Notes under the pieces: model-generated | What the model was told of the DNA's origin: nothing | The model's input: the letters and a program-made list of their open reading frames with translations, nothing else | The model's database searches: none | Origin: a virus | Lineage: Duplodnaviria; Caudoviricetes | Strand: one strand, 5' to 3' | Virus record (IMG/VR): IMGVR_UViG_3300032893_000044 | Coordinates: 1-61,743 of that record | DNA: 61,743 nt | In this document: in pieces, positions 4,836-47,362 of the stretch | Position numbering within the stretch: position 1 is the stretch's first letter | Layout of the letters: each line of letters opens with the position of its first letter | Made by a program: the position numbers and the translations under genes

Positions 4836-7437
4836 TCCTGCTGATTTAGAAGCTGCTAAAGCGTTATTACGCGCTGCCGGTTATCAGGGAGCAGCGGCTC
4901 AACAACCCCTAGAACAAGCCAAAGCCTTATTGTTAGAGCAAGGTTATCAACCGCTGGCCTCGAATGCATCAGCTTTAGCGCCCGAAGAACCTGAAGAAGA
5001 ACTGAATGAGCTGAATGAACCCAGTACCGTGCGTTTTTGGCTAGAGCAAGCGGCTAAAGCGGGTTTAAATGCGGCGGATTTTGCCGCTATGATTGGGCGC
5101 GGCATGATGGGCGGAGAAGCCGGACAATTCCTTCGCCGTAATCCAGCCGAAGCCCAAAGAGAAGCCCCGATGGAGCATACGGAAGATATTTTGAAAAAAA
5201 ATATCGGACTTGATGTTAACACGCAACCGGCTGATACGCCGTTAAAGCGTATGGGCGCAGGCGCAATTCAAGCAGGCGTTAGTACCTTATTGTTCCCCGG
5301 AGGAGGCCTCTGGAATATGATGAAAAATGCTGCTATTAGCAGTGGTTTTGGGGCAACTAGCGCAGGCCTGCAAGAAATGGGCGTTCCTGGTCCTGTTGCA
5401 GATTTGGGGCTTTTAGCGGGAACTTACTATGGCGCTAAGAAATTACCCAAAATTCAAGAAAAGATTCATAAAGGTAAAACAGCTGCTTCTAATTATTTGA
5501 GTTCCAACTTTGGCTCTCCTAAAACAGCCGCTGCTAGAACGCTGCAAGATTTTGTGCCTGCCGCAGAACGAGAAGCGGTCACAGAACGATTAATGCCTGG
5601 GGGAAAAAAGGTAGCGCCTTATGCTCAGTCAGGTTATCAGCCAACAAGTGCAGAATTGGCAGATAATCCGGGATTAGCCGCTTTACATCGCAACTTTTAT
5701 GAGCAGCCTCAATCGCAATTAGCGACCCATGTCGGTAGAGAAAGCGACAAATTAAGACATGCTCTTGAAAACGCTTCTAGCGGAGATGTTGCGGCAACTC
5801 AGCAGCATATCGCAGACCGATTAAATCAATTAGAGGGCAATGTTGCACAACGCGTCCGAGAAATTGGTCCCGGGGGCGGCTCTGCGCAAGATGCGGGAGA
5901 AGCCATTCAAAATGCGTTGTTAAATGCGGTAGAAACAAGGCAGCAAGCTAAAAGACAGCATATCGAACCCTTTCGGCAGGCTATGTTAAATAGTGAGGCC
6001 GCTGTTCAGCTGCCAACTGCTAATCGAATCATGAGAGAAGAATTACGAAAAGCAAAGGGCGATACGGAAAAAATTTTAAATGAAGCTTCAGAATTGTTTC
6101 AGCCGAATGCTGCGAACACGCCTGCCTCCTCAATCCTTGACCCGGTGACTAATCGTCCTTTTCAGGATAGGATGCCGGCTCGTTTAGATGCTGAAGAAAC
6201 CCAAAATGCGTTAGCAAAGCTTAATGACTTAATCGCCAAGTCTCGTGTAGACGGCAAAAGAACAACGTCAACAACGGCATTATTAAGGTATAAAAGAGCG
6301 ATTCAAAACGATTTAAGAGAAAGCGTGCCAGAAGTTTTGCGTTTCAGGCAAGAGTATACGCGCGCTATGGAGCCCGTCTCTGCGATTCGTGACCAGCCTG
6401 GCTTAAAAGAAATTATCAAAACAGATCGCTACAATCGAGAACAAATGACGCATGGCCGTGTCTTTCAACGTTTTGAAGGACGTTCTAGAGGCGCTGTCGA
6501 TGATGCGCGAGCGTTGATGCGAGAAGTGGGCCATGATGCGGGGATGCGCCAGTCAATTGAACAGGCGGTTAATCAACAGGCGATGGAAGCTATTGTTGAC
6601 CAGCACGGGCGTGTTAGCGAACGCTTGTTGAATAACTTTAGACAAAACAATCCGGGACTAGCTGTCTTACATCCTCAACTGTTTGGTCATCGTTTAAACA
6701 ATGTACATAACGCGCAAGTGGCCGTGAATCGCTATTATCGCGATTTAGATAGCTTGCAACAAACCTTAATGCGTAATGAATTAGGTCAATATATGCCAGG
6801 TTCTACGCAAAATTTAGGCGCTAAGATTTATCGAGCAGGCCAATCGGAGCGCACCGTAAACAATTTGATGAATGCCACAGCAGGAAATCCGCTAGCGCAA
6901 GAAGGGCTAAGACGAGAAACGATTGACCATTTTATGAGAACTATTTCCAATAATTCTCGTCAAGGCAGCGGCTATACCTTATCTTTTGCTAAAACCAATC
7001 GCTTTATGCAGCAGCATGAACGCGCTTTAGAAAGAGTTTTAACGCCAGAGCAAATGGCGCTTTTGCGGGAAAATCAAGCGATTTTAGCAGGGCAAAATAT
7101 TGCAGAAACTCAAGCAAAAAGCTTTGGTTCACCAACAGCTGCTCGCGACATTATTGAAAAAAATATTGGCAAGGGCATTGATGCCGGTGATTCCAGCTGG
7201 GCTAAATTTTACAATTACTTTGCAACCAAGCGGCGAGAAAACGCTCGAGAACTTTTATATCGCGCTTTGATTGACCCAGAAATTGCGCATGAACTTTTAA
7301 CCATGAAGGTCAAAAGCCAAGCGGCTTTCAATGCCAAGGCGCTTGATTTGAGCAAAGTGCCTTTAAAAACCCTGGCTAGAAATGTGGCGATGCGGCATAC
7401 AGAGCCAGAAGATGAAGACGAGGAGAAATCAAAATGA
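4825..7437 (+). CDS. Large internal virion/ejection protein
   Basis: 870 aa alpha-helical, A/Q/R-rich, hydrophobic glycine-rich stretch; ALIDPEIAHELL near C-terminus. Confidence 0.6.
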   Translation: MAYNPADLEAAKALLRAAGYQGAAAQQPLEQAKALLLEQGYQPLASNASALAPEEPEEELNELNEPSTVRFWLEQAAKAGLNAADFAAMIGRGMMGGEAGQFLRRNPAEAQREAPMEHTEDILKKNIGLDVNTQPADTPLKRMGAGAIQAGVSTLLFPGGGLWNMMKNAAISSGFGATSAGLQEMGVPGPVADLGLLAGTYYGAKKLPKIQEKIHKGKTAASNYLSSNFGSPKTAAARTLQDFVPAAEREAVTERLMPGGKKVAPYAQSGYQPTSAELADNPGLAALHRNFYEQPQSQLATHVGRESDKLRHALENASSGDVAATQQHIADRLNQLEGNVAQRVREIGPGGGSAQDAGEAIQNALLNAVETRQQAKRQHIEPFRQAMLNSEAAVQLPTANRIMREELRKAKGDTEKILNEASELFQPNAANTPASSILDPVTNRPFQDRMPARLDAEETQNALAKLNDLIAKSRVDGKRTTSTTALLRYKRAIQNDLRESVPEVLRFRQEYTRAMEPVSAIRDQPGLKEIIKTDRYNREQMTHGRVFQRFEGRSRGAVDDARALMREVGHDAGMRQSIEQAVNQQAMEAIVDQHGRVSERLLNNFRQNNPGLAVLHPQLFGHRLNNVHNAQVAVNRYYRDLDSLQQTLMRNELGQYMPGSTQNLGAKIYRAGQSERTVNNLMNATAGNPLAQEGLRRETIDHFMRTISNNSRQGSGYTLSFAKTNRFMQQHERALERVLTPEQMALLRENQAILAGQNIAETQAKSFGSPTAARDIIEKNIGKGIDAGDSSWAKFYNYFATKRRENARELLYRALIDPEIAHELLTMKVKSQAAFNAKALDLSKVPLKTLARNVAMRHTEPEDEDEEKSK

Positions 7438-9137
7438 GTTTTCAATTAGTCGGCGGGGGTCAGGTTGTTTATCCTGCTTATGTCAGTTATTTATCCTTAG
7501 AGTTTTCTACCGGGAATACCAATTTAAGTTGGCCTACAGAATATCAAAATCTAAACCCTGTAGTAGCGGCCTGGAATCGGGTTAAAGCGGATGCAGACAA
7601 TCTCACTTTAACATTGCCAGATGCGCGTAAAACCAGCGTGGGACAATCTTTTATCATTGATAACTATGGGACGCATGCTTTTAATTTACTCACCAATGAC
7701 GGGGTTGTGTTAGATGCTATTGCGGCTCCTAGCGTGCAATATTTTGTGTTAAGTGACAATTCGACACAAGCGGGCACCTGGATTACCACTGGCTGGGGCG
7801 GGGGTTATGCGGCGGTGACATCGGTGGCGGCTGCGCCAGCTGCCGGGGTGGCTACGAATAACTTAGATATTTCGGGCAGTCCTATTACGGTAAGCGGTAC
7901 CTTTGTCTTTGATTTAAAAGCTGACTTATTGGCTTTGACCTCATTTGATGCGGGGACAGCCACGGGGATCGCGGTTAGAACGGCGGGCACTCCGACTTAT
8001 AGCTGGTCTTTACGGACTTTAGTGGGGACCGCACAGCAGATTGCCATTACGAACGGGAACGGAGTTGCCGGCAATCCTACCATTGGCTTAGAGGCTAATG
8101 TGACCGGCATTGACAGTATGCAAATTGGCAATATTCAGATTGAAGATAATGCCATTGAGGCGTTTGCTGGCAATGAAATTTTATTAGGCGCAGGGATTGG
8201 GGCTGATGAAATCAAAATCTTATCCAACGAGGTACAGATTTTAAACGGGACTGTTTTAGAGCTGATGGCGGCCGATGATACGCATTATGTAGGTTTTGAT
8301 GCGGGCACTATGGCATCTTCTTATACCTTGACGCTGCCAACGACTGCGCCGACCGCAGGCCAAGTCATGACAGCAGGCTCTATCACGCCTACTGCGTTAA
8401 TTTGGAGCAATGCGGCGAGTTTTTCAGGGAGTTCAACGGCCAATACCCTGCCTTATTTTACCAATGATACTGGCACTATTGGCGATACCGGAATTACGGT
8501 TGGGGGGGGCGGTTTAAATGAATTGTCGGGCCTTCAGTCAGTAACGGTGCAAGATTTAGCCATTGGTTCGGCAGGCAGCACGATTATTTCCAGCACCACG
8601 TCGATTCAATTTAACTCCAATGTAGGGTATGACACGATCGTCAATCGTAATCTTACCTTATTAGCGGCGGGTGAGATTCACTTAAACAAGGCCGGAAATG
8701 ATTATTATAGCGGTTTTAGCGGGAACAACTCAGCGATTGCCAACAACGTGTGGATTTTACCAGCGGCTGATGGCGCTTCAGGCAGTTTTATCACCACTAA
8801 CGGCTTTAAGCAGCTCAGCTTTAGCTCAGTGACTGTGGCCTCCTTAACCAAGGCCTGGGTAACCTTTCAAGGGTCCACAGCTACCATTTATGAGGAATCT
8901 AATGTAGGGAGCGTTGCAAGCGCGGGAACCGGTACTTATACCATCACTTTTACCACGGCATTTTCAAATACCTATTATGGCATGGCAGGTTATGCTTATG
9001 ATGCTGGCGGCACAACGCCCGGTATTGTAGTGATTACAAATATTATCAGCACTTCCCAATGCACCGTGAAAACTTATAATTTAACAGGAAGCGCGGTGAA
9101 CTTTGGCTATGTGGCATTAAGCTTTTTCGGAAACTAA
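7434..9137 (+). CDS. Tail fibre/spike protein
   Basis: G/T/S-rich beta protein; ITNGNGVAGNPTI, YTLTLPTTAPTAGQV, C-terminal KAWVTF..NVGSV..GTYTITF module. Confidence 0.75.
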   Translation: MSFQLVGGGQVVYPAYVSYLSLEFSTGNTNLSWPTEYQNLNPVVAAWNRVKADADNLTLTLPDARKTSVGQSFIIDNYGTHAFNLLTNDGVVLDAIAAPSVQYFVLSDNSTQAGTWITTGWGGGYAAVTSVAAAPAAGVATNNLDISGSPITVSGTFVFDLKADLLALTSFDAGTATGIAVRTAGTPTYSWSLRTLVGTAQQIAITNGNGVAGNPTIGLEANVTGIDSMQIGNIQIEDNAIEAFAGNEILLGAGIGADEIKILSNEVQILNGTVLELMAADDTHYVGFDAGTMASSYTLTLPTTAPTAGQVMTAGSITPTALIWSNAASFSGSSTANTLPYFTNDTGTIGDTGITVGGGGLNELSGLQSVTVQDLAIGSAGSTIISSTTSIQFNSNVGYDTIVNRNLTLLAAGEIHLNKAGNDYYSGFSGNNSAIANNVWILPAADGASGSFITTNGFKQLSFSSVTVASLTKAWVTFQGSTATIYEESNVGSVASAGTGTYTITFTTAFSNTYYGMAGYAYDAGGTTPGIVVITNIISTSQCTVKTYNLTGSAVNFGYVALSFFGN

Positions 9138-16219: not shown

Positions 16220-16879
16220 ATGAAATTTGAAACCTGTAAATCTATTTATTCAACTTCTGTTAATAAACTAACTGGTATTGAGAAAGCTTTATTAATTTAC
16301 CTTTGCTATCGCACGAATGCGGAGGGAAATGCTTTCCCCAGTTTGAAGCGGATCAGTCGCGATATTAGTTACTGCTTAACAACAGTTAAAGGCACCATCA
16401 AAAGCCTCATTGAAAAAAACTTCATCCGGAAGATCCCAGCAGTCCCCCAATCCTCCCGACGCTCCAATGTTTATCAACTAAATCATAGCATGCTCTTTGC
16501 TCAGAAGCCTGTGGATAACTCTGTTGATAAGTACCGAAAATCTGTGGATAAGTTTGTGGATAAGTTGTTAGTAAATAGCCGGGTGGATAAACATACAGGG
16601 CGCGAGGCGACCACAGAATATATTAATAATATAAATACTAACCCTTATAATAATATTATAGTTAATCGAGGAGGGACGGCTTATCAAAAACAGCAATTAA
16701 AAGAAAAAGAAAAAAGGCAATTGGCTTATCTGCTCGCTTTATGCAAGCAAAGAAGCGTTTCTCAAAAAGCGGTACCTGTGGTCATTCCTGAGACTATACC
16801 TCCCTTAACCCCCCGTGCGCCTAAGACCTTAGCGGCCATCCTAGGAGAAAAAAATGTTACCTACGGCCAATTACGCTGA
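16220..16879 (+). CDS. Phage replication initiator with N-terminal winged HTH
   Basis: EKALLIYL..AFPSLKRI..S..TV..IKSLIEK..I..SNVY; internal DnaA-box repeats. Confidence 0.8.
   Translation: MKFETCKSIYSTSVNKLTGIEKALLIYLCYRTNAEGNAFPSLKRISRDISYCLTTVKGTIKSLIEKNFIRKIPAVPQSSRRSNVYQLNHSMLFAQKPVDNSVDKYRKSVDKFVDKLLVNSRVDKHTGREATTEYINNINTNPYNNIIVNRGGTAYQKQQLKEKEKRQLAYLLALCKQRSVSQKAVPVVIPETIPPLTPRAPKTLAAILGEKNVTYGQLR
16510..16665. promoter_or_regulatory. Putative replication origin: five DnaA boxes plus AT-rich stretch
   Basis: TGTGGATAA at 16510, 16543, 16555; 1-mismatch boxes at 16522, 16582; AT-rich 16617-16665. Confidence 0.7.
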
Positions 16880-17531
16880 GTTAGTGGCTAGCGCGGAGCG
16901 CATTTTAACGCGCTTAACTCGTCACGTCCCCAATCACCAGCTAGATAACTGGCAAATGGTTAATTTGATTAAGCAGCATGGGGTGGAAAAGGTATTGATG
17001 ACGTTAAAGGCGGTGATCGAGAACAAGACGGGGAACGTAGCAAACTTTCCTCGTTATTTAAAAAGCTGTTTGCATGGTGGCTGGGAGCTTGCTGAAACGG
17101 GCCAAGGTGCCACGAACGGCAAAAACCGTCATCACACATATGAAGAAACGCAAGTCACGCTAGAATCGCAAAATCTTTCGTTTAAACGCACAGTTGAGAA
17201 AGAGCAGCGCATGCGAGAGATTTGGCAAGCATTACCGGTTGAGCAGCGTTACCGGATCAAGGCGTGGTTAAAAGCCTCTCCGTTGGAGCAATTGATGCCT
17301 GAGCAGATTTTGCAGCGGTCTTTACGGGCATTAGAGGCGGATGAACCTGATCGAGGGTCTTTTACGCTTTTGAATTTTGCTGAAACTCATATTCCTGAAG
17401 AATTTAGTTTACCCAAGCCTGATTTGAGTGTTTTAGGAGAAAAAGAAAAACCTGTTAATAAGCTGATTAATGAGCTAGAAAAAAAATTTGGCGCAGTTCA
17501 AGTGGAAGTTAAGCCCCAAACTTGGGGCTAA
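16854..17531 (+). CDS. Replication-associated hypothetical protein
   Basis: Overlaps initiator gene; V.N.PRYL..CL..GW initiator-C-terminal-like motif. Confidence 0.55.
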   Translation: MLPTANYAELVASAERILTRLTRHVPNHQLDNWQMVNLIKQHGVEKVLMTLKAVIENKTGNVANFPRYLKSCLHGGWELAETGQGATNGKNRHHTYEETQVTLESQNLSFKRTVEKEQRMREIWQALPVEQRYRIKAWLKASPLEQLMPEQILQRSLRALEADEPDRGSFTLLNFAETHIPEEFSLPKPDLSVLGEKEKPVNKLINELEKKFGAVQVEVKPQTWG

Positions 17532-17559
17532 TAAATTAAGGATTAAAATATGTCTTGCA
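17506..17559 (-). ncRNA. Putative sRNA unit 1
   Basis: TTGACA(17594-89)-17-TAGATT promoter; unique segment; AGCCCC-AAGTTT-GGGGCT-TAACTT. Confidence 0.65.
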
Positions 17560-17608
17560 CAATCCAATCTAGCGCGATTTTAAACAAATGTCAAGCGTAA
17601 TCTATCGA

Positions 17609-17674
17609 AAGTTTAGCCTCTAAGCGAGGCTAATGTAAGTGGTAAATTAGAAACCTATACAAAATGTAGCTTGA
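17609..17674 (-). ncRNA. Putative sRNA unit 2
   Basis: TTGACA(17710-05)-18-TATCTT with extended TG; AGCCTC-GCTTA-GAGGCT-AAACTT. Confidence 0.65.
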
Positions 17675-17713
17675 AAAATTAAGATAGCATAATGGCTAAT
17701 AAAATGTCAAGAG

Positions 17714-17773
17714 AAGTTTAGCCTCTAAGCGAGGCTATATAGTATTTCACAGTTAAGAGGATCATGCCTGATC
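17714..17773 (-). ncRNA. Putative sRNA unit 3
   Basis: TTGACA(17809-04)-18-TATATT; AGCCTC-GCTTA-GAGGCT-AAACTT. Confidence 0.65.
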
Positions 17774-17812
17774 AAGTATAATATAGCCTAATAACTAGGT
17801 GCATGTCAAGTG

Positions 17813-17857
17813 AAGTTAAGCCCCCTTTGGGGCTATTTTTTTTAAGCGTGACATGAA
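17813..17857 (-). ncRNA. Putative sRNA unit 4 (no separate promoter seen)
   Basis: AGCCCC-AAAG-GGGGCT-TAACTT directly downstream of unit 5. Confidence 0.5.
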
Positions 17858-17906
17858 AAGTTAAGCCCCTCACGGGGCTAAAAAAATGTACTTAGCAATG
17901 ATTAGC
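17858..17906 (-). ncRNA. Putative sRNA unit 5
   Basis: TTGACA(17941-36)-17-TAAGCT; AGCCCC-GTGA-GGGGCT-TAACTT. Confidence 0.65.
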
Positions 17907-17930
17907 TTTTTTAGCTTATGGGAGAGACTT

Positions 17931-18173
17931 ATGATTGTCAACTGGGTTGCGGAATTTTTTGATACGGTGGTCTCGGTAGCTGGCAAATATGCCAGGTGGT
18001 TAAATATCAAAGGGAGACGGATTTGTTTTTTGATATGGGCTATCTGTTCCGTGTACTGGGTGGGGCGAGATATTGCGGTGGGACTTTATTCCCAAGCGGC
18101 TTTTGCAGTTTTTTCGGTAGGATTAAATGCCTATGGTTTTTTTAATTGGAAGAAAAATAAAATTGGAAATTAA
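17931..18173 (+). CDS. Small PnuC-like membrane protein
   Basis: Hydrophobic helices; LNIK..CFLIW..LYSQ..YGFFNWKK; GGAGAG RBS. Confidence 0.6.
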   Translation: MIVNWVAEFFDTVVSVAGKYARWLNIKGRRICFLIWAICSVYWVGRDIAVGLYSQAAFAVFSVGLNAYGFFNWKKNKIGN

Positions 18174-18211
18174 AGCTTGACACTTTTTAAAAGTCTCTTT
18201 ACACTTCAATT

Positions 18212-18272
18212 GACCATGAGTGTTAGTACTGTTATCGATGGTAAAAACTAGCCCCGGCAGGGGCTCAACTTT
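18212..18272 (+). ncRNA. Putative sRNA unit 6, leader of the ProQ/FinO gene
   Basis: TTGACA(18177)-17-TACACT; AGCCCC-GGCA-GGGGCT-CAACTTT ending 17 nt before ATG. Confidence 0.65.
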
Positions 18273-18289
18273 ATCGTTATGGAGGATGA

Positions 18290-18883
18290 ATGATGGAACA
18301 GCAACAAAAACCTTCTCGCAAAGTGCGGATGTCTGTTGGTCTTTTTGAAAAAGGACTAACCATTTTAAATGTTTTAAAACAAACTTATCCTAAATGTTTT
18401 TTTGAACCCGGTAAAGAAAAGCCTTTAAAAAAAGGTATTTTGTTAGATTTATTGCAAGCATCGGGTTTATCCTTTGAATCTCCTTCCTATCAAGCGATTA
18501 CAGCGGCAATTAATATTTACACAAGCACATTGAGTTACCGGGTAGGTTTAATTCGAGAAGACGCAGTACGCATTGATTTAGAAGGCAATGAAGTTGAGCC
18601 GATTAATTTACGGGAAAGAACTCAGGCAAAAATAGAAAAAATGAATTTTGAATGGAAGTTGAGCATGGCAGAAGCGGTGATGGCAAAAGATATTCGTAAA
18701 CAAGCCGGTTTTCATTATGCGCGCGATCGAAAAAGAAAAGAAGCTAAAAAGGCAACTATGTCCACGGTTGAAATGGCAGATAAAAGTGATGTGATAAACA
18801 CTGAAGCTGTATCAGCTTTGCCTGTCAAAAAGGAAACAATGCCTAAAATTGTTTTTAAAAAGAGGTTAAGCCAAGGGGTTTAA
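18290..18883 (+). CDS. ProQ/FinO-domain RNA chaperone
   Basis: L...YPKCF..KPLKKGI..DL..AI..YT....Y..GL...AVRIDLEG..V signature; basic C-terminal extension. Confidence 0.9.
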   Translation: MMEQQQKPSRKVRMSVGLFEKGLTILNVLKQTYPKCFFEPGKEKPLKKGILLDLLQASGLSFESPSYQAITAAINIYTSTLSYRVGLIREDAVRIDLEGNEVEPINLRERTQAKIEKMNFEWKLSMAEAVMAKDIRKQAGFHYARDRKRKEAKKATMSTVEMADKSDVINTEAVSALPVKKETMPKIVFKKRLSQGV

Positions 18884-18886
18884 AAG

Positions 18887-19327
18887 TTATGGTAATGTTA
18901 ATAAGATTTTCAGGAGTTCTTTTAAATCATTAAACTTGCTAAACAAAGTTAAATTTAAACGAGCATCCTCATCTATGGTGCTGTATAAAAATTTGTCATA
19001 TATCGATGTTAATGATGAGAAGCCATAACTCACATTTTTTATTCCTCCGTGCATGACATTTGCATAGCCAGTTGCTGATGATGAGAATCCATGACTAAAT
19101 CTCATAGACCTTCGAAAAGTAATGCGTTGACTGGTCATTCTTAAACTTAAAAACAACGCTTTTAAGACGCACCCTAAAAAATGCTTTGGATATCTTTTAG
19201 CATGTTGTAAATAAACTTTAAGCTGCACCTCAAACTCAACGACAGAGCTTTTTCTTTGATAAAGCCGCCAGATATCTTCAATGAAGACTTGTTGTTCAGA
19301 GGTAAACCAATCTACTTTTATATTCAT
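18887..19327 (-). CDS. Hypothetical protein
   Basis: 146 aa ORF. Confidence 0.5.
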   Translation of the reverse strand: MNIKVDWFTSEQQVFIEDIWRLYQRKSSVVEFEVQLKVYLQHAKRYPKHFLGCVLKALFLSLRMTSQRITFRRSMRFSHGFSSSATGYANVMHGGIKNVSYGFSSLTSIYDKFLYSTIDEDARLNLTLFSKFNDLKELLKILLTLP

Positions 19328-19332
19328 AAAAA

Positions 19333-19704
19333 TCAGTCAAAGAATATTTTTTTGGCTATGCTTTTGCAAGAATAATCTCGTAAAGCAGCGTAAAAGAGCG
19401 TTTGCAAGATCTCTTTTTTAACGGCAACACTGAAATATTCAACAGCCGAATGATCAAACATCATCGGGTCTTTGTTGATAAAGCGATACGCTATTTTTTG
19501 ACTTTCATTCCAAAGATTATAAAAAACAGGAGCGCCTTCTTTGATAGGCTCTAATAATACCGCCGCGTGGCCTAACCCCCATTCTGATTGATAAGCTTTT
19601 TCTTTTTTTTTCGTTCCTACAATAGGCTCTGTTAGCCAGCCCATAGCTATCTCTCGACCGATGAAAGCCAATCTGAATCCGGCTTTAAAAGCGGTTCTTC
19701 GCAA
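19333..19704 (-). CDS. Hypothetical protein (start may be MGWL at ~19644)
   Basis: ORF in leftward unit. Confidence 0.45.
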   Translation of the reverse strand: MRRTAFKAGFRLAFIGREIAMGWLTEPIVGTKKKEKAYQSEWGLGHAAVLLEPIKEGAPVFYNLWNESQKIAYRFINKDPMMFDHSAVEYFSVAVKKEILQTLFYAALRDYSCKSIAKKIFFD

Positions 19705-19801
19705 AGATAAGTCAATATTAAGTCTGGCTTTTGCTTAGTATAGTCTTTAACCATCTCTTTTAAAATTTTGACCTCAATGGGGCTTAAATCAAAATCTTCA
19801 T

Positions 19802-20011
19802 TCATGCTTCACCTCTTTCTTTTAGGGGCAACTCTGGCGCAGTATCACTTAAAACAACCGTTTCTTGCTTCCCCGTATTATCTTCATAAATAAAAGTTAA
19901 TGTCCAGCGGATAGGCGTTACCCGCTGACGAGCTTCTACGCAACATTGATGAATAGCTTGTTTAACCCGAATCAATAACCCATGATTTAGCCCGAACAGT
20001 CTTTCAATCAT
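19802..20011 (-). CDS. Hypothetical protein
   Basis: GAGG RBS; TTGACA at 20077-72 upstream. Confidence 0.5.
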   Translation of the reverse strand: MIERLFGLNHGLLIRVKQAIHQCCVEARQRVTPIRWTLTFIYEDNTGKQETVVLSDTAPELPLKERGEA

Positions 20012-20121
20012 TTTAACCTCGCTTTACCCAATCCTTTACCGCGCTTTACTTATAGAAGATAAGAATCCTACTGTCAAGTTATTTTTGTTGCATTTTTCTT
20101 AAACCTTCTTTAGAATAAGGC

Positions 20122-20168
20122 CAAATGTTTCTATTGGTCATAATTTAGCCCCTTCGGGGGCTTTACTT
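20122..20168 (+). ncRNA. Putative sRNA unit 7
   Basis: TTGCAT(20088)-17-TAGAAT; AGCCCC-TTCG-GGGGCT-TTACTT. Confidence 0.65.
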
Positions 20169-20195
20169 CTGATTTACCCCTTGTTACTATACGTT

Positions 20196-20246
20196 TCGAT
20201 GTCGATGATATTTCTTATTTTTAGCCCCTTCGGGGGCTTTAATTTT
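20196..20246 (+). ncRNA. Putative sRNA unit 8
   Basis: TTTACT(20162)-17-TACTAT with extended TG; AGCCCC-TTCG-GGGGCT-TTAATTTT. Confidence 0.6.
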
Positions 20247-20296
20247 CTTCTCCTCTGTTAAAACGAAAAAGATAGCCTCGTTAGAGGCTTAACTTT
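20245..20296 (+). ncRNA. Putative sRNA unit 9 (no separate promoter seen)
   Basis: Anti-SD-like TCTCCTC segment; AGCCTC-GTTA-GAGGCT-TAACTTT. Confidence 0.55.
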
Positions 20297-20297
20297 C

Positions 20298-20326
20298 TTG
20301 ACCGAATTTTAATTTACCCCTATCCT
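20298..20326 (+). promoter_or_regulatory. Sigma70-type promoter upstream of terminase small subunit
   Basis: TTGACC-17-TATCCT. Confidence 0.5.
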
Positions 20327-20374: not shown

Positions 20375-20926
20375 GTGACAATGGCCGCTCCGACAGGGAA
20401 CAAGTTTGGATTGCGATTTTCGAAGGGATTCGATCCACGAAGGAGTGGCCGTAAGCCTTGGAATCCTGATTTCAAAATCAAGTATGACAAAGAAGAACCT
20501 CAGCTTTTAGATAGGCTCTTTGATATTGCTCGTTTTGACCCCAATCCCGGGGTAGCTTTGAATGCGATTATTTACCTCATGAGTATGCGCTATGGCCGTC
20601 CGGTGGACATGGTCCAAATGAAGCAGCTGAATGAGGAATTTGAGCGTCGAGAAGCGGAAGAAAACGCCATTACCTTTACGCAAGAACACGCCCTTTTAGC
20701 CGCGGACGTGATTAAGAATCAAGGGGTGGAAGCTGACATTTTAAAACTCATGCGCACCCTTTATAGCTCGGGCATTTTAGGCTCTCTTTATAGTCAATTT
20801 GAAGCAGAAGCCCAACAAAGTGAACCTCTCTTAATTTCTGCTGCTGAATCCATTGACAATGACGCTTGCCAAGGATACAGTGAGGCAAGCAAACAAGGAG
20901 AAGGAGAGCAGGACAATGATTGCTAA
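20375..20926 (+). CDS. Putative terminase small subunit (DUF5681-like N-terminus)
   Basis: AAP.GNKFG.RFSKG.DPRRSGRKP; YL..MRYGRP. Confidence 0.55.
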   Translation: MTMAAPTGNKFGLRFSKGFDPRRSGRKPWNPDFKIKYDKEEPQLLDRLFDIARFDPNPGVALNAIIYLMSMRYGRPVDMVQMKQLNEEFERREAEENAITFTQEHALLAADVIKNQGVEADILKLMRTLYSSGILGSLYSQFEAEAQQSEPLLISAAESIDNDACQGYSEASKQGEGEQDNDC

Positions 20927-27898: not shown

Positions 27899-28160
27899 AA
27901 AACCACTGGTATTTAACCATTGTTTGGCAAAATTTAGAGAGACGTGGCTCTATAGCAAGACCACCCCACAAATCATAGCCCTGAGTTAATTCTTTTTTTA
28001 CCTCTTTTTCTAAGCCATCTTTCAAGTAGTGACAAAAAATTTTATAGTCCACCACGCGCATGCGATAGGCAACAGGGGTTTCTTTTTGTTCTTCTACTCC
28101 TTCGGCAACACTGATACCCAAAAGCAGACTTAGTGCGAGCCCTTTAACCCATGCCTTCAT
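27891..28160 (-). CDS. Secreted small protein (DUF1737-like)
   Basis: Signal peptide; LEKEV...L..GY.L.GG..FCQTMVK. Confidence 0.5.
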   Translation of the reverse strand: MKAWVKGLALSLLLGISVAEGVEEQKETPVAYRMRVVDYKIFCHYLKDGLEKEVKKELTQGYDLWGGLAIEPRLSKFCQTMVKYQWFYE

Positions 28161-28645
28161 GCCATTGTCCTTTTAAGCTTTTGCTCCATCGCGTCAATTT
28201 CTTGGTCCATTTCAGCCCAAGCGGTCTTAACTGACTTCTCATGCTTTAAAATCTCAATCTCAGATCCCCGTTTAGTCAACAGCAAACTATATTCCCGCGC
28301 CTGTAAACGTTTCACCAAAAAGTCTACAGCTAAAAGCGGATCTGCTTTTTCCCCACACGTGTAAAACGCAATGCTCGCCCGCCGATGCTCCGGCCAGGTA
28401 TGAATAGTAATATGTGACTCAGCTAACAAAATAAGAACGGTCACACCATGGGGCTTAAATTGATGGCTAATGCGATTGATTTGTGTGGCTTTAGCAATGA
28501 TAGCAGCGGACCCCAGCGTCTCTTCCAGAAAATCTCGCTCATTCAATAAAATCCCCGAACATCCAGACAATTCCAGACTCAAGTCTTTACCATCGGACGT
28601 ATAGGTGGGATAAACAGTTTCTACTAATCTAAATTGTTTTAACAT
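28157..28645 (-). CDS. speD: S-adenosylmethionine decarboxylase proenzyme
   Basis: HQF.PHGVT...LLAESHITIHTWPE...FYTCG with ESH autocleavage site. Confidence 0.9.
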   Translation of the reverse strand: MLKQFRLVETVYPTYTSDGKDLSLELSGCSGILLNERDFLEETLGSAAIIAKATQINRISHQFKPHGVTVLILLAESHITIHTWPEHRRASIAFYTCGEKADPLLAVDFLVKRLQAREYSLLLTKRGSEIEILKHEKSVKTAWAEMDQEIDAMEQKLKRTMA

Positions 28646-28739: not shown

Positions 28740-30353
28740 ATGGACAAGCTTGCCTTTTCTAGCTTGGAGTTTCCGCACTTGCTAGGGTATACGGACATTG
28801 CTCTCGCGGAACAGTCTCTTTATGCTTTTGTGAAGCAAGCGTGGCCTATTGTAGAGGGTCGACGGGTGTTTGTGGGTGGCTGGCACATTCAAGCCATTTG
28901 CGAGCATCTAGAAGCTGTGATTAAGGGCGATATTAAGCGGTTAGTCATTAATGTACCCCCGCGTACCAGTAAGTCAACGGTCGCGAGCGTGATGTTTTGC
29001 GCGTGGGCTTGGATTTCCCGGCCTGAGCTGCGCTTTCTCTATGCCTCCCATAAACAAGAGCTGGCCACGGTTCATTCGGTCTTATGTCGTAATTTGATTC
29101 TTTCTCCTTGGTACCAAGAGCGTTGGGCAGATCGCTTTCAGCTCGTCAAAGGCGAGATTCAAAAAGAAAAGTTTCAAAATGACCAGCGGGGAGAACGACT
29201 CACCACGGGTGTTACCTCAGGGCTCTTAGGAACAGGAGGCGATATCCTCTTGGCAGATGACCCCAATACGGGGGAAGATGTCACCTCCAAAGCCGAACGA
29301 GAAAAAAAAATCGCCTGGTTTCAGCATAGCTTCTCAACCCGTTTAAATGACCCCAAAAGCGGTTGTATCGTCGTGATTCAACAACGCCTCCATGAGAACG
29401 ATATCACGGGCTATCTCATTTCTAATGACCTCTACAAAGAGTATGTGAAGCTCATCCTCCCTATGGAGTTTGAACCCGCCAGACGCGCTAGAACCATTAT
29501 CTTACCCACATCCCATGGCAAAGTTTGGCAAGACCCGCGTAAAACCGCAGGCGAACTCCTCTGCCCTGACCGTATTGGCCCTAAAGAGCTTAATCGCCTC
29601 AAGAATCAGCTCGGCACAGAGCTCAATATCTCAGGACAGCTTCAACAAAGCCCCCATCCCGAAGGGGGTGCCTATATCAAAGCAGACTGGTTTCAATGGT
29701 GGGTGTCTAAAAGCGTGCCCAAGCTCATTCGTATCTTTCAAAGTCTCGATACCGCCTATACGGATAAAGCTGAAAACGACGCATGCGCAATCACCACCTG
29801 GGGCCTCTTTTATCATGAAAAGCTCAATTGCCGTTGCCTGCTATTACTAGATACCTGGTCTGACCGTGTTCTTTACCCTAAACTTCGTCGGATTGTCACA
29901 GCCGGCTATCATGACTACCGCTCGCACCATCGAAAAGTCCAACCCCATTCTGCCTATAAAACCGATACCCTTATCATCGAAACCAAGGCAGCAGGAGCCC
30001 CTATCCTCCAAGACCTGCATGAAGCAGGCTTACACGTGCACGAGTTCAATCCGGGTAAGATGGACAAAGTGGGACGCGTTTCTCTCTGTAGCGCACTCTT
30101 AGAAAATGGCCTTATCTTTGTTCCGGCAGACCCTAAGACAGACTTCAAAACGCTGCTACCCATTTCTGCCCAACTCATTGACCAATGCATTAGATTCCCT
30201 AACTCAGAGCATGACGATATTGTCGACACCATGACGCAGATGCTTATCTATGCACAGCAAAACCATATACTAGACCACCGCGACAACCCCAAATTCACCG
30301 AAGACTTCGGTCAACCTACCTCTATTGGCCTTTATAACGATTATACGCTGTAA
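28740..30353 (+). CDS. terL: Terminase large subunit
   Basis: INVPPRTSKS Walker A, LLADDP Walker B, QQRLHE.D, SLDTA, HDDIVDTMTQ. Confidence 0.95.
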   Translation: MDKLAFSSLEFPHLLGYTDIALAEQSLYAFVKQAWPIVEGRRVFVGGWHIQAICEHLEAVIKGDIKRLVINVPPRTSKSTVASVMFCAWAWISRPELRFLYASHKQELATVHSVLCRNLILSPWYQERWADRFQLVKGEIQKEKFQNDQRGERLTTGVTSGLLGTGGDILLADDPNTGEDVTSKAEREKKIAWFQHSFSTRLNDPKSGCIVVIQQRLHENDITGYLISNDLYKEYVKLILPMEFEPARRARTIILPTSHGKVWQDPRKTAGELLCPDRIGPKELNRLKNQLGTELNISGQLQQSPHPEGGAYIKADWFQWWVSKSVPKLIRIFQSLDTAYTDKAENDACAITTWGLFYHEKLNCRCLLLLDTWSDRVLYPKLRRIVTAGYHDYRSHHRKVQPHSAYKTDTLIIETKAAGAPILQDLHEAGLHVHEFNPGKMDKVGRVSLCSALLENGLIFVPADPKTDFKTLLPISAQLIDQCIRFPNSEHDDIVDTMTQMLIYAQQNHILDHRDNPKFTEDFGQPTSIGLYNDYTL

Positions 30354-30433
30354 GCATGGGCGCACTTTACCGAATTTCAAACTTAAGCGATAATAGGTCA
30401 TCTGTCTTTTTGTTTTAACGTGGAGGAACAACC

Positions 30434-30697
30434 ATGAAAAAGCTATTATTAATCCTTCTAACTTTTTTGTTAGCAGCGGGTTGCTTTTCGACTGTTGTCA
30501 CTCATTTGAATGTCAATGTGAAGCTAGAACGCGCCCCTGTTCTTCCTCCTCAGTATATGTTGAAAGGAGCGGACCCAAACTTAATCAAGAATCAGTACTG
30601 CGTCAAAATCCCCTTGATTAAGCGCGAGCTCGGCCTCTCTCTGCATAAAGGAGGAGAGTGCGAAGGGAAAGCTATCCTTAACTTTCCCAAACGTTAA
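30434..30697 (+). CDS. Putative lipoprotein
   Basis: MKKLLLILLTFLLAAGC lipobox; GGAGG RBS. Confidence 0.65.
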   Translation: MKKLLLILLTFLLAAGCFSTVVTHLNVNVKLERAPVLPPQYMLKGADPNLIKNQYCVKIPLIKRELGLSLHKGGECEGKAILNFPKR

Positions 30698-39474: not shown

Positions 39475-42060
39475 ATGGCTTTCGAAGACGAATTCGCTCT
39501 CCTAGAGCAAGACCTCTTACCAGACGATGCGTCTGCGTATGAAATCGCGGCAAAGGGCCCGGCAGACGGAGGAACAACCCCTGCCGGGAGCGATTTTTAC
39601 GAAAACCTCGCAGAGCACATCGATGTCTCCATTCTATCCGGTCTTGGGGCCAGATTACTAGACGAGATTAAAGAAGATATCGAATCCCGCCGTGAATGGG
39701 AACAAACCATCGCCCTCGTCATGAAGTATCTAGGCGAAAAGGTAGAAGAATCCAAAAGCGTTCCCTTCTTTCGCGCCTGTTCTTCCTTTGATACCACTCT
39801 CACCACGGCTGTCTATCGTAACTATAGCGTCTACAAACGCGAACTCTTTCCCCCGGAAGGTCCTTGCAAATCTAAAATCAATGGTATCCCCACCAAAGAA
39901 ACCGAAGAAATTGGGGAACGCCGCAAGATTTTTGCTAACTACTATCTAACGACAGTCGACAAAGAATATTACCCTGACAGCGAAAAACTGCTGTTATACA
40001 CCATCTATTGCGGCTCTGGTTTTAGGAAAATCTACCAAGACCCTTTAACCAAGATGCCGGTAAGCCGTTTCATTCGACCGCAAGATTTTATTGTCAACGT
40101 CCATACCACTACTATCCTTTCCTCCTCCCGCCTCACACACCTCTACGAGCTCCCCAAACAAGATATCTATCTGCGTCAGCAGGATGGGTATTTTACCGGG
40201 GAGTCCCTCCCTAATGTGAGCGACGATACGGAAAGCGAGCCCAGTGTTATCACGGAGACCACCAAAAACATCACCGGCATCCAGACGGACAATACCGAAA
40301 ACAAATCGCTGTTCAAGTTCTATGAATGTCACGTCATCCTAGACTATACCGACTTAAAGGGCCAAGACCCCGCTGCCGACCGCAACATTCCCTGCCCCTA
40401 CATCGTTACCATCTGCGAAGCCACAAAAAAGATTGTGCGCATTCAGCGGAATTGGGAAGAAGGCGACGAGCAGTTCAAACGCAAAGAATACTTCGTGCAC
40501 TACCAGTTCCTCCCAGGCTTTGGCATGTATGGCATCGGGATGGCCCATTTAACCGGATCCAATGCCATTACCCTGACAACGATTTTGCGTCAGCTCATTG
40601 ATGCTGGCACGCTCAAGAACTTCCCCGGCGGCTTAAAGTCCACGTCTGCACGCTCGAATCAAAACAACAAGTCGATCGGGCCCGCGGAGTGGCAAGAGGT
40701 GGAGACCGGAGGCAAAGCCATTCAAGACTGCTTCATGCTCATGCCCTATGCAGAGCCTTCCCAAGTCTTGGCTGCCTTGCGCGGTGAACTCAAAACTGAA
40801 ACCTTAAATGTCGTCGCAGCCGCCGAGGAAGGCCTCCAAGAAATGGGGCCTAATACCGCACCCACGACAGCCTTAATCAGCCAGGAAGTTGCAGCACGCT
40901 TGCAATCGGCTTCTTTAATGTCCATGCATTCGAGCTTGGCATACGAATTTAGCTTGCTGTTCGCCATCTTTGGCGAATGCTTGCCGGATGAGCCTTATCC
41001 TTTCAAGGTGCCAGGTTATGAGGGAGCCGTTCTAAAGACGGACTTTAACAACAATATTGACACAGTCCCGGTCTCTAATCCGAATGTGCTCACCTCATCC
41101 CATCGTCTTATCAATGCCGATGCTTTGCTGAAGCTCGCCTCCCAAGCTCCCGATGTCTACAACATCCGTGAAACCCAAAAACGCATGTTAGAGGCGATGA
41201 ACGTCGAAAACATCGACGCGGTCTTAAAGCCAGAGCCTGTCCCGCGCTCTTTAGATGCAGTCAGTGAAAACATGCTCATTTTAAAGGGGCAGCCGGTCAA
41301 AGCCGCGCACTTTCAAAATCACAAAGCCCATAACACGGTGCATAACAAGTTTATTCAAGACGTGAGTCAAAACCCTATCTTCATGCAGCTGAACCCCATG
41401 GCGGTTCCTGATACCACGCTGCATATCCAGCAGCACTCGGCCTTAGCTGTCTTGCAAGAGTGGTACGCACAAGACCCGCTCTTTGCCGACAGCATTGTGC
41501 AAAAGTTCATGCAGCAAAACAACATCAATCCGCAAGAAGAACTTTCTGAAGAACAAATCATGCTTATCCCAGAAGTGCAAAACCGGGTGACAGAGATTAA
41601 CGCCGAAGAAGCCATGCAGCAGATGGAAGCACAAGCCGCTCAGCAGCAGGCCATGATGGAAGCGCAGATGAATCAGGTTGACCCGGCGCAGGTGATGCTA
41701 GCAGACGTCGAGCAGCAGCGTGAAAAGACGCAGATTGAAGCCGAAGTTGCGCTGCGTAAAGTTGAGACCGAAAAAGAAATCGCTGACCAGAAAGCCGAGA
41801 CCGAAAGCTTTAAGACGCAGCTCAAGTTTGAGGGCGACCAAGCCAAGATTGAAGCGGACCAAGAGATGGCCCGCGAAAAGGCTGAAGTCGATGTGATGTT
41901 AGCGGAAATGAAGCAGCAGGCAGCCCACGAGCAAAACCTCTTAAAACATGAAGCAGCCAAACAGCAAAACGAAATGAAGCATCAGGCGGCCAGAGAACAA
42001 CAGGCCAATCAGCATCTTCACCAATCCTTACATAAACCTAACCCTAAAGAGGAAAGATAA
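39475..42060 (+). CDS. Portal protein
   Basis: FYENLAE, SRREWE, ELFPPEGP.K, GSGFRKIY.D, YFVHY.FLPGFG.YG.G, LRQLIDAGTL.N.PGG; long helical C-terminal barrel. Confidence 0.9.
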   Translation: MAFEDEFALLEQDLLPDDASAYEIAAKGPADGGTTPAGSDFYENLAEHIDVSILSGLGARLLDEIKEDIESRREWEQTIALVMKYLGEKVEESKSVPFFRACSSFDTTLTTAVYRNYSVYKRELFPPEGPCKSKINGIPTKETEEIGERRKIFANYYLTTVDKEYYPDSEKLLLYTIYCGSGFRKIYQDPLTKMPVSRFIRPQDFIVNVHTTTILSSSRLTHLYELPKQDIYLRQQDGYFTGESLPNVSDDTESEPSVITETTKNITGIQTDNTENKSLFKFYECHVILDYTDLKGQDPAADRNIPCPYIVTICEATKKIVRIQRNWEEGDEQFKRKEYFVHYQFLPGFGMYGIGMAHLTGSNAITLTTILRQLIDAGTLKNFPGGLKSTSARSNQNNKSIGPAEWQEVETGGKAIQDCFMLMPYAEPSQVLAALRGELKTETLNVVAAAEEGLQEMGPNTAPTTALISQEVAARLQSASLMSMHSSLAYEFSLLFAIFGECLPDEPYPFKVPGYEGAVLKTDFNNNIDTVPVSNPNVLTSSHRLINADALLKLASQAPDVYNIRETQKRMLEAMNVENIDAVLKPEPVPRSLDAVSENMLILKGQPVKAAHFQNHKAHNTVHNKFIQDVSQNPIFMQLNPMAVPDTTLHIQQHSALAVLQEWYAQDPLFADSIVQKFMQQNNINPQEELSEEQIMLIPEVQNRVTEINAEEAMQQMEAQAAQQQAMMEAQMNQVDPAQVMLADVEQQREKTQIEAEVALRKVETEKEIADQKAETESFKTQLKFEGDQAKIEADQEMAREKAEVDVMLAEMKQQAAHEQNLLKHEAAKQQNEMKHQAAREQQANQHLHQSLHKPNPKEER

Positions 42061-47132: not shown

Positions 47133-47362
47133 TCCCTTCCTCTTATGGCCAATTGGTAATATCGTTTTACGTCTACTAAGCCAAATTTCCAGCTTAAAAA
47201 TCTTAAAGCGATTCTTCTTGGTACATTTGAATGATAATACAAATATTGATATAAGCGCACACCTTGCCGTACTTGCCGGGAGCGCCAGTAGGCTTTTAAA
47301 ATGGGCCAGTTCCACTGGTCTAGTACGTTATCCCTCTCATCTAGCTCATCTAAGATGCTCAT
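47129..47362 (-). CDS. YY-motif small protein (cluster D)
   Basis: YLY..VPRRIALRFL..VKRYYQLAI. Confidence 0.65.
   Translation of the reverse strand: MSILDELDERDNVLDQWNWPILKAYWRSRQVRQGVRLYQYLYYHSNVPRRIALRFLSWKFGLVDVKRYYQLAIRGRE

Follow-up and report, generated by a model that had tools for sequence, protein, structure and literature searches.

Why should a phage surround the gene for an RNA chaperone with nine copies of one small hairpin? The locus that raises this question lies in the IMG/VR virus record IMGVR_UViG_3300032893_000044 (Caudoviricetes), and the window analysed here, 61,743 bases long, is that complete virus record. All nine hairpin modules fall within positions 17495-20306, around a gene for a ProQ/FinO-domain protein, and no comparable copy exists elsewhere in the 61.7 kb. 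Directly visible in the sequence are the repeats and their hairpin, the sites that resemble promoters, the clustering and the FinO domain. We tentatively propose, with a probability of about 0.45, that the region comprises the chaperone and a battery of short, mostly autonomous small RNA (sRNA) genes.

The modules share a 6-bp hairpin (AGCCYC/GRGGCU), with a loop of 4-6 nt in the alignment of the nine copies, and a UAACUU-like tail with the consensus U(U/A)AACUU(U/C), in which two purines are conserved. When a covariance model of the nine copies was run on the window, it returned nine hits with scores of 39.4-46 bits (E 3e-10 to 3e-8) and no other above 16.5 bits, and the strict pattern AGCCYC-N3-6-GRGGCTWAACTT matched six times in the window against 0.00 expected. 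Five modules lie on the - strand (17495-17941; L1 to L5) and four on the + strand (18250, 20147, 20223 and 20274; R0 to R3). Standard pairs occupy 54 of 54 stem cells in all nine copies, and the stems are retained while the loops vary in both sequence and length. One stem pair varies on both sides, being C-G in six copies and U-A in three; the covariation score of the stem was reached by 13 of 500 shuffles, and because the modules of L2 and L3 are identical there were probably no more than two independent covariation events. This identity extends over 24 nt, and the leaders of the two units, i.e., their unit-specific 5' segments, are unrelated. At the stem's base, U stands opposite U in six of the nine modules; a U-U mispair is formed in the crystal structure of RocR (PMC9674577). 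Minimum-free-energy folds keep the hairpin and leave the leaders mostly unpaired. Terminator-like sites in a scan of the 2-kb region numbered 8, compared with 2.1+/-1.4 in shuffles, and a second scan gave 4 compared with 1.0+/-1.0. The spacings (45, 99, 105, 116 nt and more, with units on both strands) lack a CRISPR-type periodicity, and no Cas family appeared in general scans of about 50 window proteins, a subset of its open reading frames (ORFs). The repeats, the hairpin and their clustering at the FinO-domain gene are real and far beyond chance.

In four of the nine units (L1, L2, L3 and R0) a good sigma-70 promoter precedes the hairpin by about 50-70 nt. A sigma-70 consensus scan placed these sites at 17809, 17710 and 17594 (- strand) and at 18177 (+ strand), with 10-11 of 12 matches and spacers of 17-18 nt; every one of them precedes a hairpin of its own strand. 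Exact TTGACA occurs on the - strand four times in 445 nt, compared with 0.15 expected from the window-wide rate (P ~2e-5). No ORF of at least 20 aa lies between the modules on the sRNA strand. The predicted RNAs would be about 50-70 nt long, with a mostly unpaired 5' part, whose unit-specific segment measures 23-50 nt, and the hairpin at the 3' end. L4 is separated from L5 by only 45 nt; its hairpin is followed on the + strand (17819-17842) by T8 and sits between the genes for replication on one side and those for the membrane protein and the chaperone on the other. From its sequence, this hairpin is predicted to be a strong bidirectional terminator, effective also for rightward transcription.

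The 196-aa protein encoded amid the modules matches, among structures in PDB, the N-terminal domain of E. coli ProQ (5nb9), Lpp1663 (6s10) and RocC (7rgs/7rgu). Its subfamily is sparse, with 200 matches at E<=1e-3 and only 18 at 1e-10 among 1.84 billion representatives. The 3'-nucleotide pocket of RocC consists of Gly52, Tyr87 and Arg97 (PMC9674577), which align with G48, Y82 and R93 of the phage protein; across the 15-member subfamily Y82 and R93 are invariant and G48 is nearly so. For RocC, residue numbers were obtained by applying an offset of 18 to chain 7rgs, a value consistent with the three pocket residues and with Arg75. FinO domains bind a terminator hairpin and a short 3' tail with its 3'-OH, with little sequence specificity in the stem (PMC9674577), and the predicted module fits this description except for its tail. 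R0 stands directly upstream of the Shine-Dalgarno (SD) sequence of the chaperone gene (18281-18285), and since it lies between a good promoter and this SD, the chaperone mRNA probably begins with one copy of the module. In the R0 fold (18225-18279), GAUGGUAAA pairs with UUUAUCGUU around the conserved hairpin, which lengthens the stem almost to the chaperone SD. Such an extended stem could act as an attenuator or autoregulatory leader. Coordinates of these and other features are collected in Table 1.

Table 1. Positions of sRNA units, their parts and selected genes in the window
Feature	Position	Strand	Remarks
L1	17501-17594	-	promoter TTGACA-17-TAGATT (17594-17566); leader ~17559-17530
L1 hairpin and tail	17529-17501	-	inside last codons of ORF 16854-17531
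L2	17604-17710	-	promoter TTGACA-18-TATCTT with TG (17710-17681); hairpin and tail 17632-17604
L2 leader	~17674-17633	-	two CAU, no anti-SD
L3	17709-17809	-	promoter TTGACA-18-TATATT, 11/12 (17809-17780); hairpin 17737-17709, same as that of L2
L3 leader	~17773-17738	-	CAU and CCUC; mirror of AAGAGGATCATG
L4	17808-17857	-	hairpin 17834-17813, only 23 nt before it; ATGTCA replaces TTGACA
L5	17853-17941	-	exact -35 TTGACA (17941-17936); weak -10 TAAGCT, read by eye
L5 leader	~17906-17880	-	antisense to 5' untranslated region of membrane-protein gene; hairpin and tail 17879-17853
R0	18177-18282	+	promoter TTGACA-17-TACACT (18177-18205); leader ~18212-18249; hairpin and tail 18250-18279
R1-R3	20124-20326	+	hairpins 20147-20168, 20223-20245, 20274-20295
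Promoter after R3	20298-20326	+	TTGACC-17-TATCCT, 9/12; faces ORF 20375-20926
ProQ/FinO-domain protein, 196 aa	18293-18883	+	PF04352, 60.6 bits (cutoff 27), E 1.7e-16
PnuC-like small membrane protein, 80 aa	17931-18173	+	start 17931 with SD GGGAGAG
225-aa ORF	16854-17531	+	downstream of O-like replication gene; last 8 codons encode L1 hairpin
O-like replication initiator gene	16220-16879		
Large terminase	28740-30353		
Portal protein	39475-42060		
Tail fibre	7434-9137		

In the mechanism that we propose, each sRNA unit would consist of a sigma-70 promoter, a variable and largely unstructured 5' segment and the constant 3' module, which would act as terminator and probably also as the binding handle of the ProQ/FinO-domain protein. 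If the analogy with FinP/FinO, Inc/FopA and RocR/RocC holds, the chaperone would grip the base of the hairpin and the 3' end, stabilise the RNA and aid base-pairing of the 5' segment with mRNAs. L1, L3 and the anti-SD of R3 would pair at ribosome-binding regions, and the leftward units would be perfect cis-antisense to any transcript that reads rightward out of the replication genes into those for the membrane protein and the chaperone. With R0 in the leader of its mRNA, the protein may control its own synthesis. Transcription of the units, the RNA ends, chaperone binding and every target are parts of this scheme that we infer. The initial annotation had already treated the leftward units as sRNAs used together with a chaperone, and its interpretation is partly supported: these units do resemble genuine short transcription units beside a FinO-domain chaperone gene. 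Its further proposals, capture of the guides from host or competitor genes and CAU as a feature of the sRNAs in general, are not supported, as detailed below.

To our knowledge, the FinO/ProQ proteins studied on mobile elements each come with a single antisense RNA. Like FinP/FinO of F-like plasmids and Inc/FopA of IncI plasmids, the element studied here encodes a FinO-domain protein and predicted hairpin-ended short RNAs, with L1-L5 antisense to a neighbouring operon; in the plasmid systems the RNA pairs with the ribosome-binding region of traJ or repZ mRNA (PMC9977716). However, whereas these plasmids possess one RNA encoded in cis opposite a single target, the carrier here is a phage, and it has nine handles with different leaders and at least 4-5 promoters. 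There is also no protein-gene start opposite the phage leaders, L5 lying in a 5' untranslated region (UTR) and L1 opposite a 16-codon ORF. In RocR/RocC, a FinO-domain protein binds a trans-acting sRNA via terminator hairpin and 3' tail (PMC6744872, PMC9674577), and the phage protein resembles RocC in its conserved 3'-nucleotide pocket. The tail of RocR is polypyrimidine, in contrast to UAACUU in the phage module, and no sequence similarity to RocR was found, as Rfam 15 gave 0 matches at gathering scores on the whole window. The plasmid-borne RocRp of Legionella is a mobile-element sRNA that silences host genes (PMC6744872); it uses the host chaperone and mimics a host sRNA, whereas the phage brings its own chaperone and several unrelated leaders. 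A phage with its own chaperone and up to nine handle RNAs would extend the FinO picture to a multi-RNA regulon. The array would also offer a small model in which to ask how FinO domains select RNAs, with the UAACUU tail as a specificity test.

The most serious alternative, which we nevertheless consider unlikely, is that the modules are cis-acting terminator-promoter cassettes, insulators or recombination cassettes similar to the PeSL elements of T4-type phages, and that short RNAs are by-products. The hairpin and the adjoining -35 would then be the functional or mobile unit, which halts incoming transcription and restarts it. Four convergent leftward promoters would dampen or block rightward read-through from the replication operon, and R1-R3 together with the promoter at 20298 would form a leader or terminator cluster of the next operon, possibly an antitermination target. 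The conserved block does extend from the hairpin into the -35, as GGCT-WAACTT-YNC-TTGACA at two junctions and in degenerate forms at three more. Moreover, the L4 hairpin with its T8 would be a strong + strand terminator, the promoter after R1-R3 faces a protein gene, and the array is absent at the same position in relatives, which is what an inserted cassette would lead one to expect. PeSLs occur on either side of ORFs and are dispersed over hyperplastic regions, whereas no ORF of at least 20 aa occurs between the modules here. Like the modules, PeSLs are small composite terminator/promoter sequences, a stem-loop with a sigma-70 promoter, that are repeated in phage variable regions (PMC4122927). 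Unlike PeSLs, the cassettes of the array are 45-116 nt apart and lie only around an RNA-chaperone gene, with none of the nine copies elsewhere in the genome. In addition, the leftward array is directed towards a gene's 3' end and has nothing to drive, and the conservation of the tail exceeds what a terminator needs.

Rather than guiding anything, the RNAs might serve as decoys, sponges or autoregulatory sites whose handles titrate a host ProQ/FinO chaperone or buffer the phage's own. Nine near-identical handles, the lack of detected targets and the position of R0 within the leader of the chaperone gene would all agree with this. We regard it as improbable, as a sponge needs no separate promoters with different leaders, and these leaders are kept unstructured and unit-specific, two of them (L1 and L3) mirroring complete initiation regions.

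Are the leaders then antisense to gene starts? This was the central claim of the initial annotation, whose units 1 to 5 correspond to L1 to L5, and all sequences quoted in it were found in the window. The mirror of L1 on the + strand (17536-17560, TTAAGGATTAAAATATGTCTTGCAC) contains the SD AAGGA (17538-17542), a 7-nt spacer and ATG (17550-17552), and the mirror of L3, AAGAGGATCATG, contains the SD GAGGA, 2 nt and ATG (17764-17766). Opposite L4 lies GACATGAAAA with ATG at 17853-17855, and opposite L5 there are + strand ATGs at 17886 and 17898. Mirroring of a complete SD and ATG, however, is confined to L1 and L3. For an SD 4-mer followed after 3-10 nt by ATG, this count of 2 of 9 leaders compares with a mean of 0.20 in mononucleotide shuffles (P=0.015) and of 0.31 in the empirical control, random segments of the same length from the same phage (P=0.036). 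CAU, which the initial annotation ascribed to the sRNAs, is present in 7 of 9 leaders, with means of 4.3 in shuffles (P=0.064) and 3.7 in random segments (P=0.028), and in all five leftward leaders (P=0.036 and 0.011, respectively). All these leader features were chosen post hoc, and the P values are therefore generous. As a shared design feature CAU is not supported, and same-strand AUG (7 occurrences) and CAU (9) show no clear strand asymmetry. The CAU sequences described for units 6 and 7 do exist, but these are rightward units outside the coordinates given there (18212-18249 and 20124-20146). R3 carries UCCUC and has no CAU.

For two of the leftward units, the CAU can be accounted for in other ways. 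That of L4 lies within ATGTCA, which aligns to the -35 TTGACA of the other junctions. The ATGs opposite L5 lie upstream of the true start of the membrane protein at 17931; this start is supported by five relatives (own 80-aa entry excluded), which are 80-83 aa long, cover only 79-85% of the 95-aa ORF and start at the position equivalent to 17931, and L5 is therefore antisense to the 5' UTR and not to the start codon. It is credible from the sequence that L1 and L3, and perhaps a third leader, are anti-ribosome-binding-site guides.

The same mirrored sequences permit a reading in which the + strand is functional, with the SD and ATG opposite L1 and L3 being real or relic starts of tiny or deleted genes, e.g., the 16-codon ORF 17550-17600, and L1 acting as cis-antisense RNA in the manner of a type I toxin-antitoxin system. 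It would fit that a canonical SD, a spacing of 7 nt and then an ATG come right after the stop of ORF 16854-17531, and the 18-mer opposite L1 is a true gene start elsewhere: of the 12 unrelated viral contigs that hold it, 5 have it at the beginning of an ORF (76 to 675 aa), which makes it credible, on sequence grounds, as an initiation region. Against this, no ORF of at least 20 aa follows the + strand ATGs of L1, L3 and L4, in agreement with what had been annotated; the peptides read from the sequence have 16, 5 and 3 codons, the 16-mer MSCTIQSSAILNKCQA is not hydrophobic, unlike type I toxins, and only 2 of 9 units would be accounted for. We attach little probability to this reading.

Capture of the leaders from translation-initiation regions of host or competitor genes, as had been suggested, found no support in our searches. 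Matches to the L1 18-mer in the 12 contigs extend only 0-3 nt further, and because of this they are best seen as generic likeness to initiation regions, not as a capture source. The 18-mer of L3 occurs in two viral contigs with 0 nt of extension and opens no ORF, and when the array (17500-17945) was compared by blastn with 50,697 records of phages and 72,556 of plasmids, all matches had E>=2. More ambitiously, the locus could be pictured as a multiplexed, protein-assisted RNA silencing kit, in which one FinO-type chaperone serves guide sRNAs on a common 3' handle, new guides arise by recombination at the hairpin-promoter junction, and several guides are aimed at ribosome-binding regions of host-defence or competitor genes. 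This picture is doubtful, in our estimate rather improbable. If true, it would amount to an RNA-guided analogue of a spacer array that acts on translation instead of DNA, and leaders that silenced host or rival genes would represent a new means of phage takeover or of counter-defence.

Phage small RNAs such as c4 of P1/P7, CI RNA of P4 and sar of P22 block ribosome-binding sites or transcription of phage genes; they are single RNAs with targets in the same phage. Unlike for these RNAs, this genome holds no site elsewhere that is complementary to the leaders over more than 13 nt. Duplex energies of the guides were compared for 111 crudely called gene starts with those of shuffled guides, and then with 1187 internal windows. 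At gene starts, L4 and R3 did better than all but at most 1 of 60 shuffles, and the L4 match was discarded as homopolymer pairing of an A-run with a U-run. Set against the internal windows, the best duplex lay at a gene start for 2 of 9 guides (R1 and R3), with ~0.8 expected, which is not significant. R1 pairs with a GTG start at 47315 (-16.0 kcal/mol), its best window overall. Duplexes of the anti-SD leaders are on average 1.4-1.9 kcal/mol more stable at starts than at internal windows, a difference that any anti-SD should show. A 13-mer match of L2 (34601-34613) was rejected as a target site; it is antisense to a + strand ORF and not at a gene start.

The 5' end of R3 (UCCUCUGUUAAAACGAA, 20251-20273) pairs, with an energy of -18.4 kcal/mol, with 30409-30448, where the SD region of an 87-aa ORF (30434) lies. 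This ORF sits just after the terminase gene, and the pairing, although the best window overall for R3, is not significant after allowing for nine guides. It is a lead only, and R3 has no promoter of its own.

Several results weigh against our reading of the region as a chaperone with a set of sRNA genes. All evidence for the module comes from paralogues of a single genome. L4, R2 and R3 have no promoter, and L5 and R1 only weak ones, that of R1 being a candidate read by eye. Promoter-like sites in the 2-kb scan do not exceed shuffles in number (6 compared with 4.6+/-2.2), so that what counts for the promoter argument is how good the sites are and where they lie, not how many there are. The UAACUU tail with its two purines is a poorer U-tract than that of classical terminators, and poorer than the polypyrimidine tails of known FinO ligands (PMC9674577). 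The N-cap residue Arg75 of RocC aligns with Thr70 of the phage protein; this arginine is about 80% conserved in the family, so Thr70 does not exclude membership. CAU enrichment in the leaders is marginal and partly explained otherwise (L4 and L5). Within the phage no trans target is conspicuous; exact complements to the leaders are 10-13 nt at their longest, which is inside the shuffle range. Comparison with relatives was no more favourable: three viral records with chaperone homologues contain no module (best E 0.31), ten viral loci with a homologue of the membrane protein have neither a module nor a chaperone gene beside it, and junction-pattern scans gave six matches in metagenome contigs, all without a hairpin and attributable to chance, and none in genome contigs.

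A single-sequence query with the chaperone found nothing in viral contigs; the three distant loci (40-42% identity) came from an alignment query, and the homologues there stand in tightly packed operons. The alignment detected no relative in genome and metagenome contigs, and the chaperone query against the plasmid collection recovered only chromosomal proQ (33-38% identity). No chaperone gene lies within reach of the terminase relatives (36 loci, <=53% identity). The array and chaperone could be either a recent, lineage-specific acquisition or simply unsampled. Searches of open-access full texts (supplements excluded) brought up no account of a FinO-domain gene carried by a phage together with sRNAs in tandem; FinO homologues encoded by phages are mentioned in PMC9977716, in whose consulted passages no RNA array appears.

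The hairpin pattern occurs at 59 loci in viral contigs, none with a chaperone and most of them unrelated bidirectional terminators. Many bidirectional terminators of the form AAGTTAGCCCCC..GGGGGGCTTAACTT recur on two jumbo-phage contigs of 172 kb and 264 kb (loci L002, L005, L013, L019, L022, L024, L027, L036, L041, L050, L051, L057 and L058) and constitute an unrelated family. In a distant phage with a chaperone homologue (locus L060), a 9-bp hairpin (5106-5141) lies ~560 nt downstream and is followed by ATTAACTTTG, which is UAACUU-like. The tail of this hairpin, GGGGG-ATTAACTTT, resembles that of the module; as a single case it carries no weight. The PnuC-like half-size membrane protein has homologues with 53-64% identity in ten other viral contigs, where it is always a stand-alone small gene and directly follows other coding sequence.

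That the palindromes are DNA-level repeats, i.e., sites for a phage DNA-binding protein in partition, packaging or as operators, is very improbable: nine copies of a palindromic core (TAGCCCC..GGGGCTA) would suit it, but the loop length varies by two nt, which would alter the distance between half-sites, conservation of the flank is limited to one orientation, promoters stand at consistent positions on the hairpin strand, and iteron- or DnaA-box-like repeats of the likely origin are found elsewhere (16509-16565). The latter are CTGTGGATAA-type tandem repeats within the O-like replication initiator gene and are probably the phage origin.

The early region of the genome further encodes Erf and a VRR-NUC nuclease besides the O-like replication initiator. 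No tRNA genes were found in the window, and no close relative of the phage was found among the isolated phages searched; the terminases of the nearest isolates share at most 39.5% identity, and the hosts of these phages are mixed. Searches of the ORFs neighbouring the array against Pfam, PHROGs and NCBIfam and two Atlas look-ups gave nothing usable except a sub-threshold La-domain match (18.2 bits compared with a cutoff of 37.1) in the 146-aa ORF 18887-19327 (-), directly downstream of the chaperone gene. We have set this match aside; if true, the ORF would encode a second protein that binds RNA 3' ends. A gene of the S-adenosylmethionine decarboxylase family (28157-28645, -; Pfam 105.7 bits) lies directly upstream of the terminase gene, from which it diverges, and may be an auxiliary metabolic gene.

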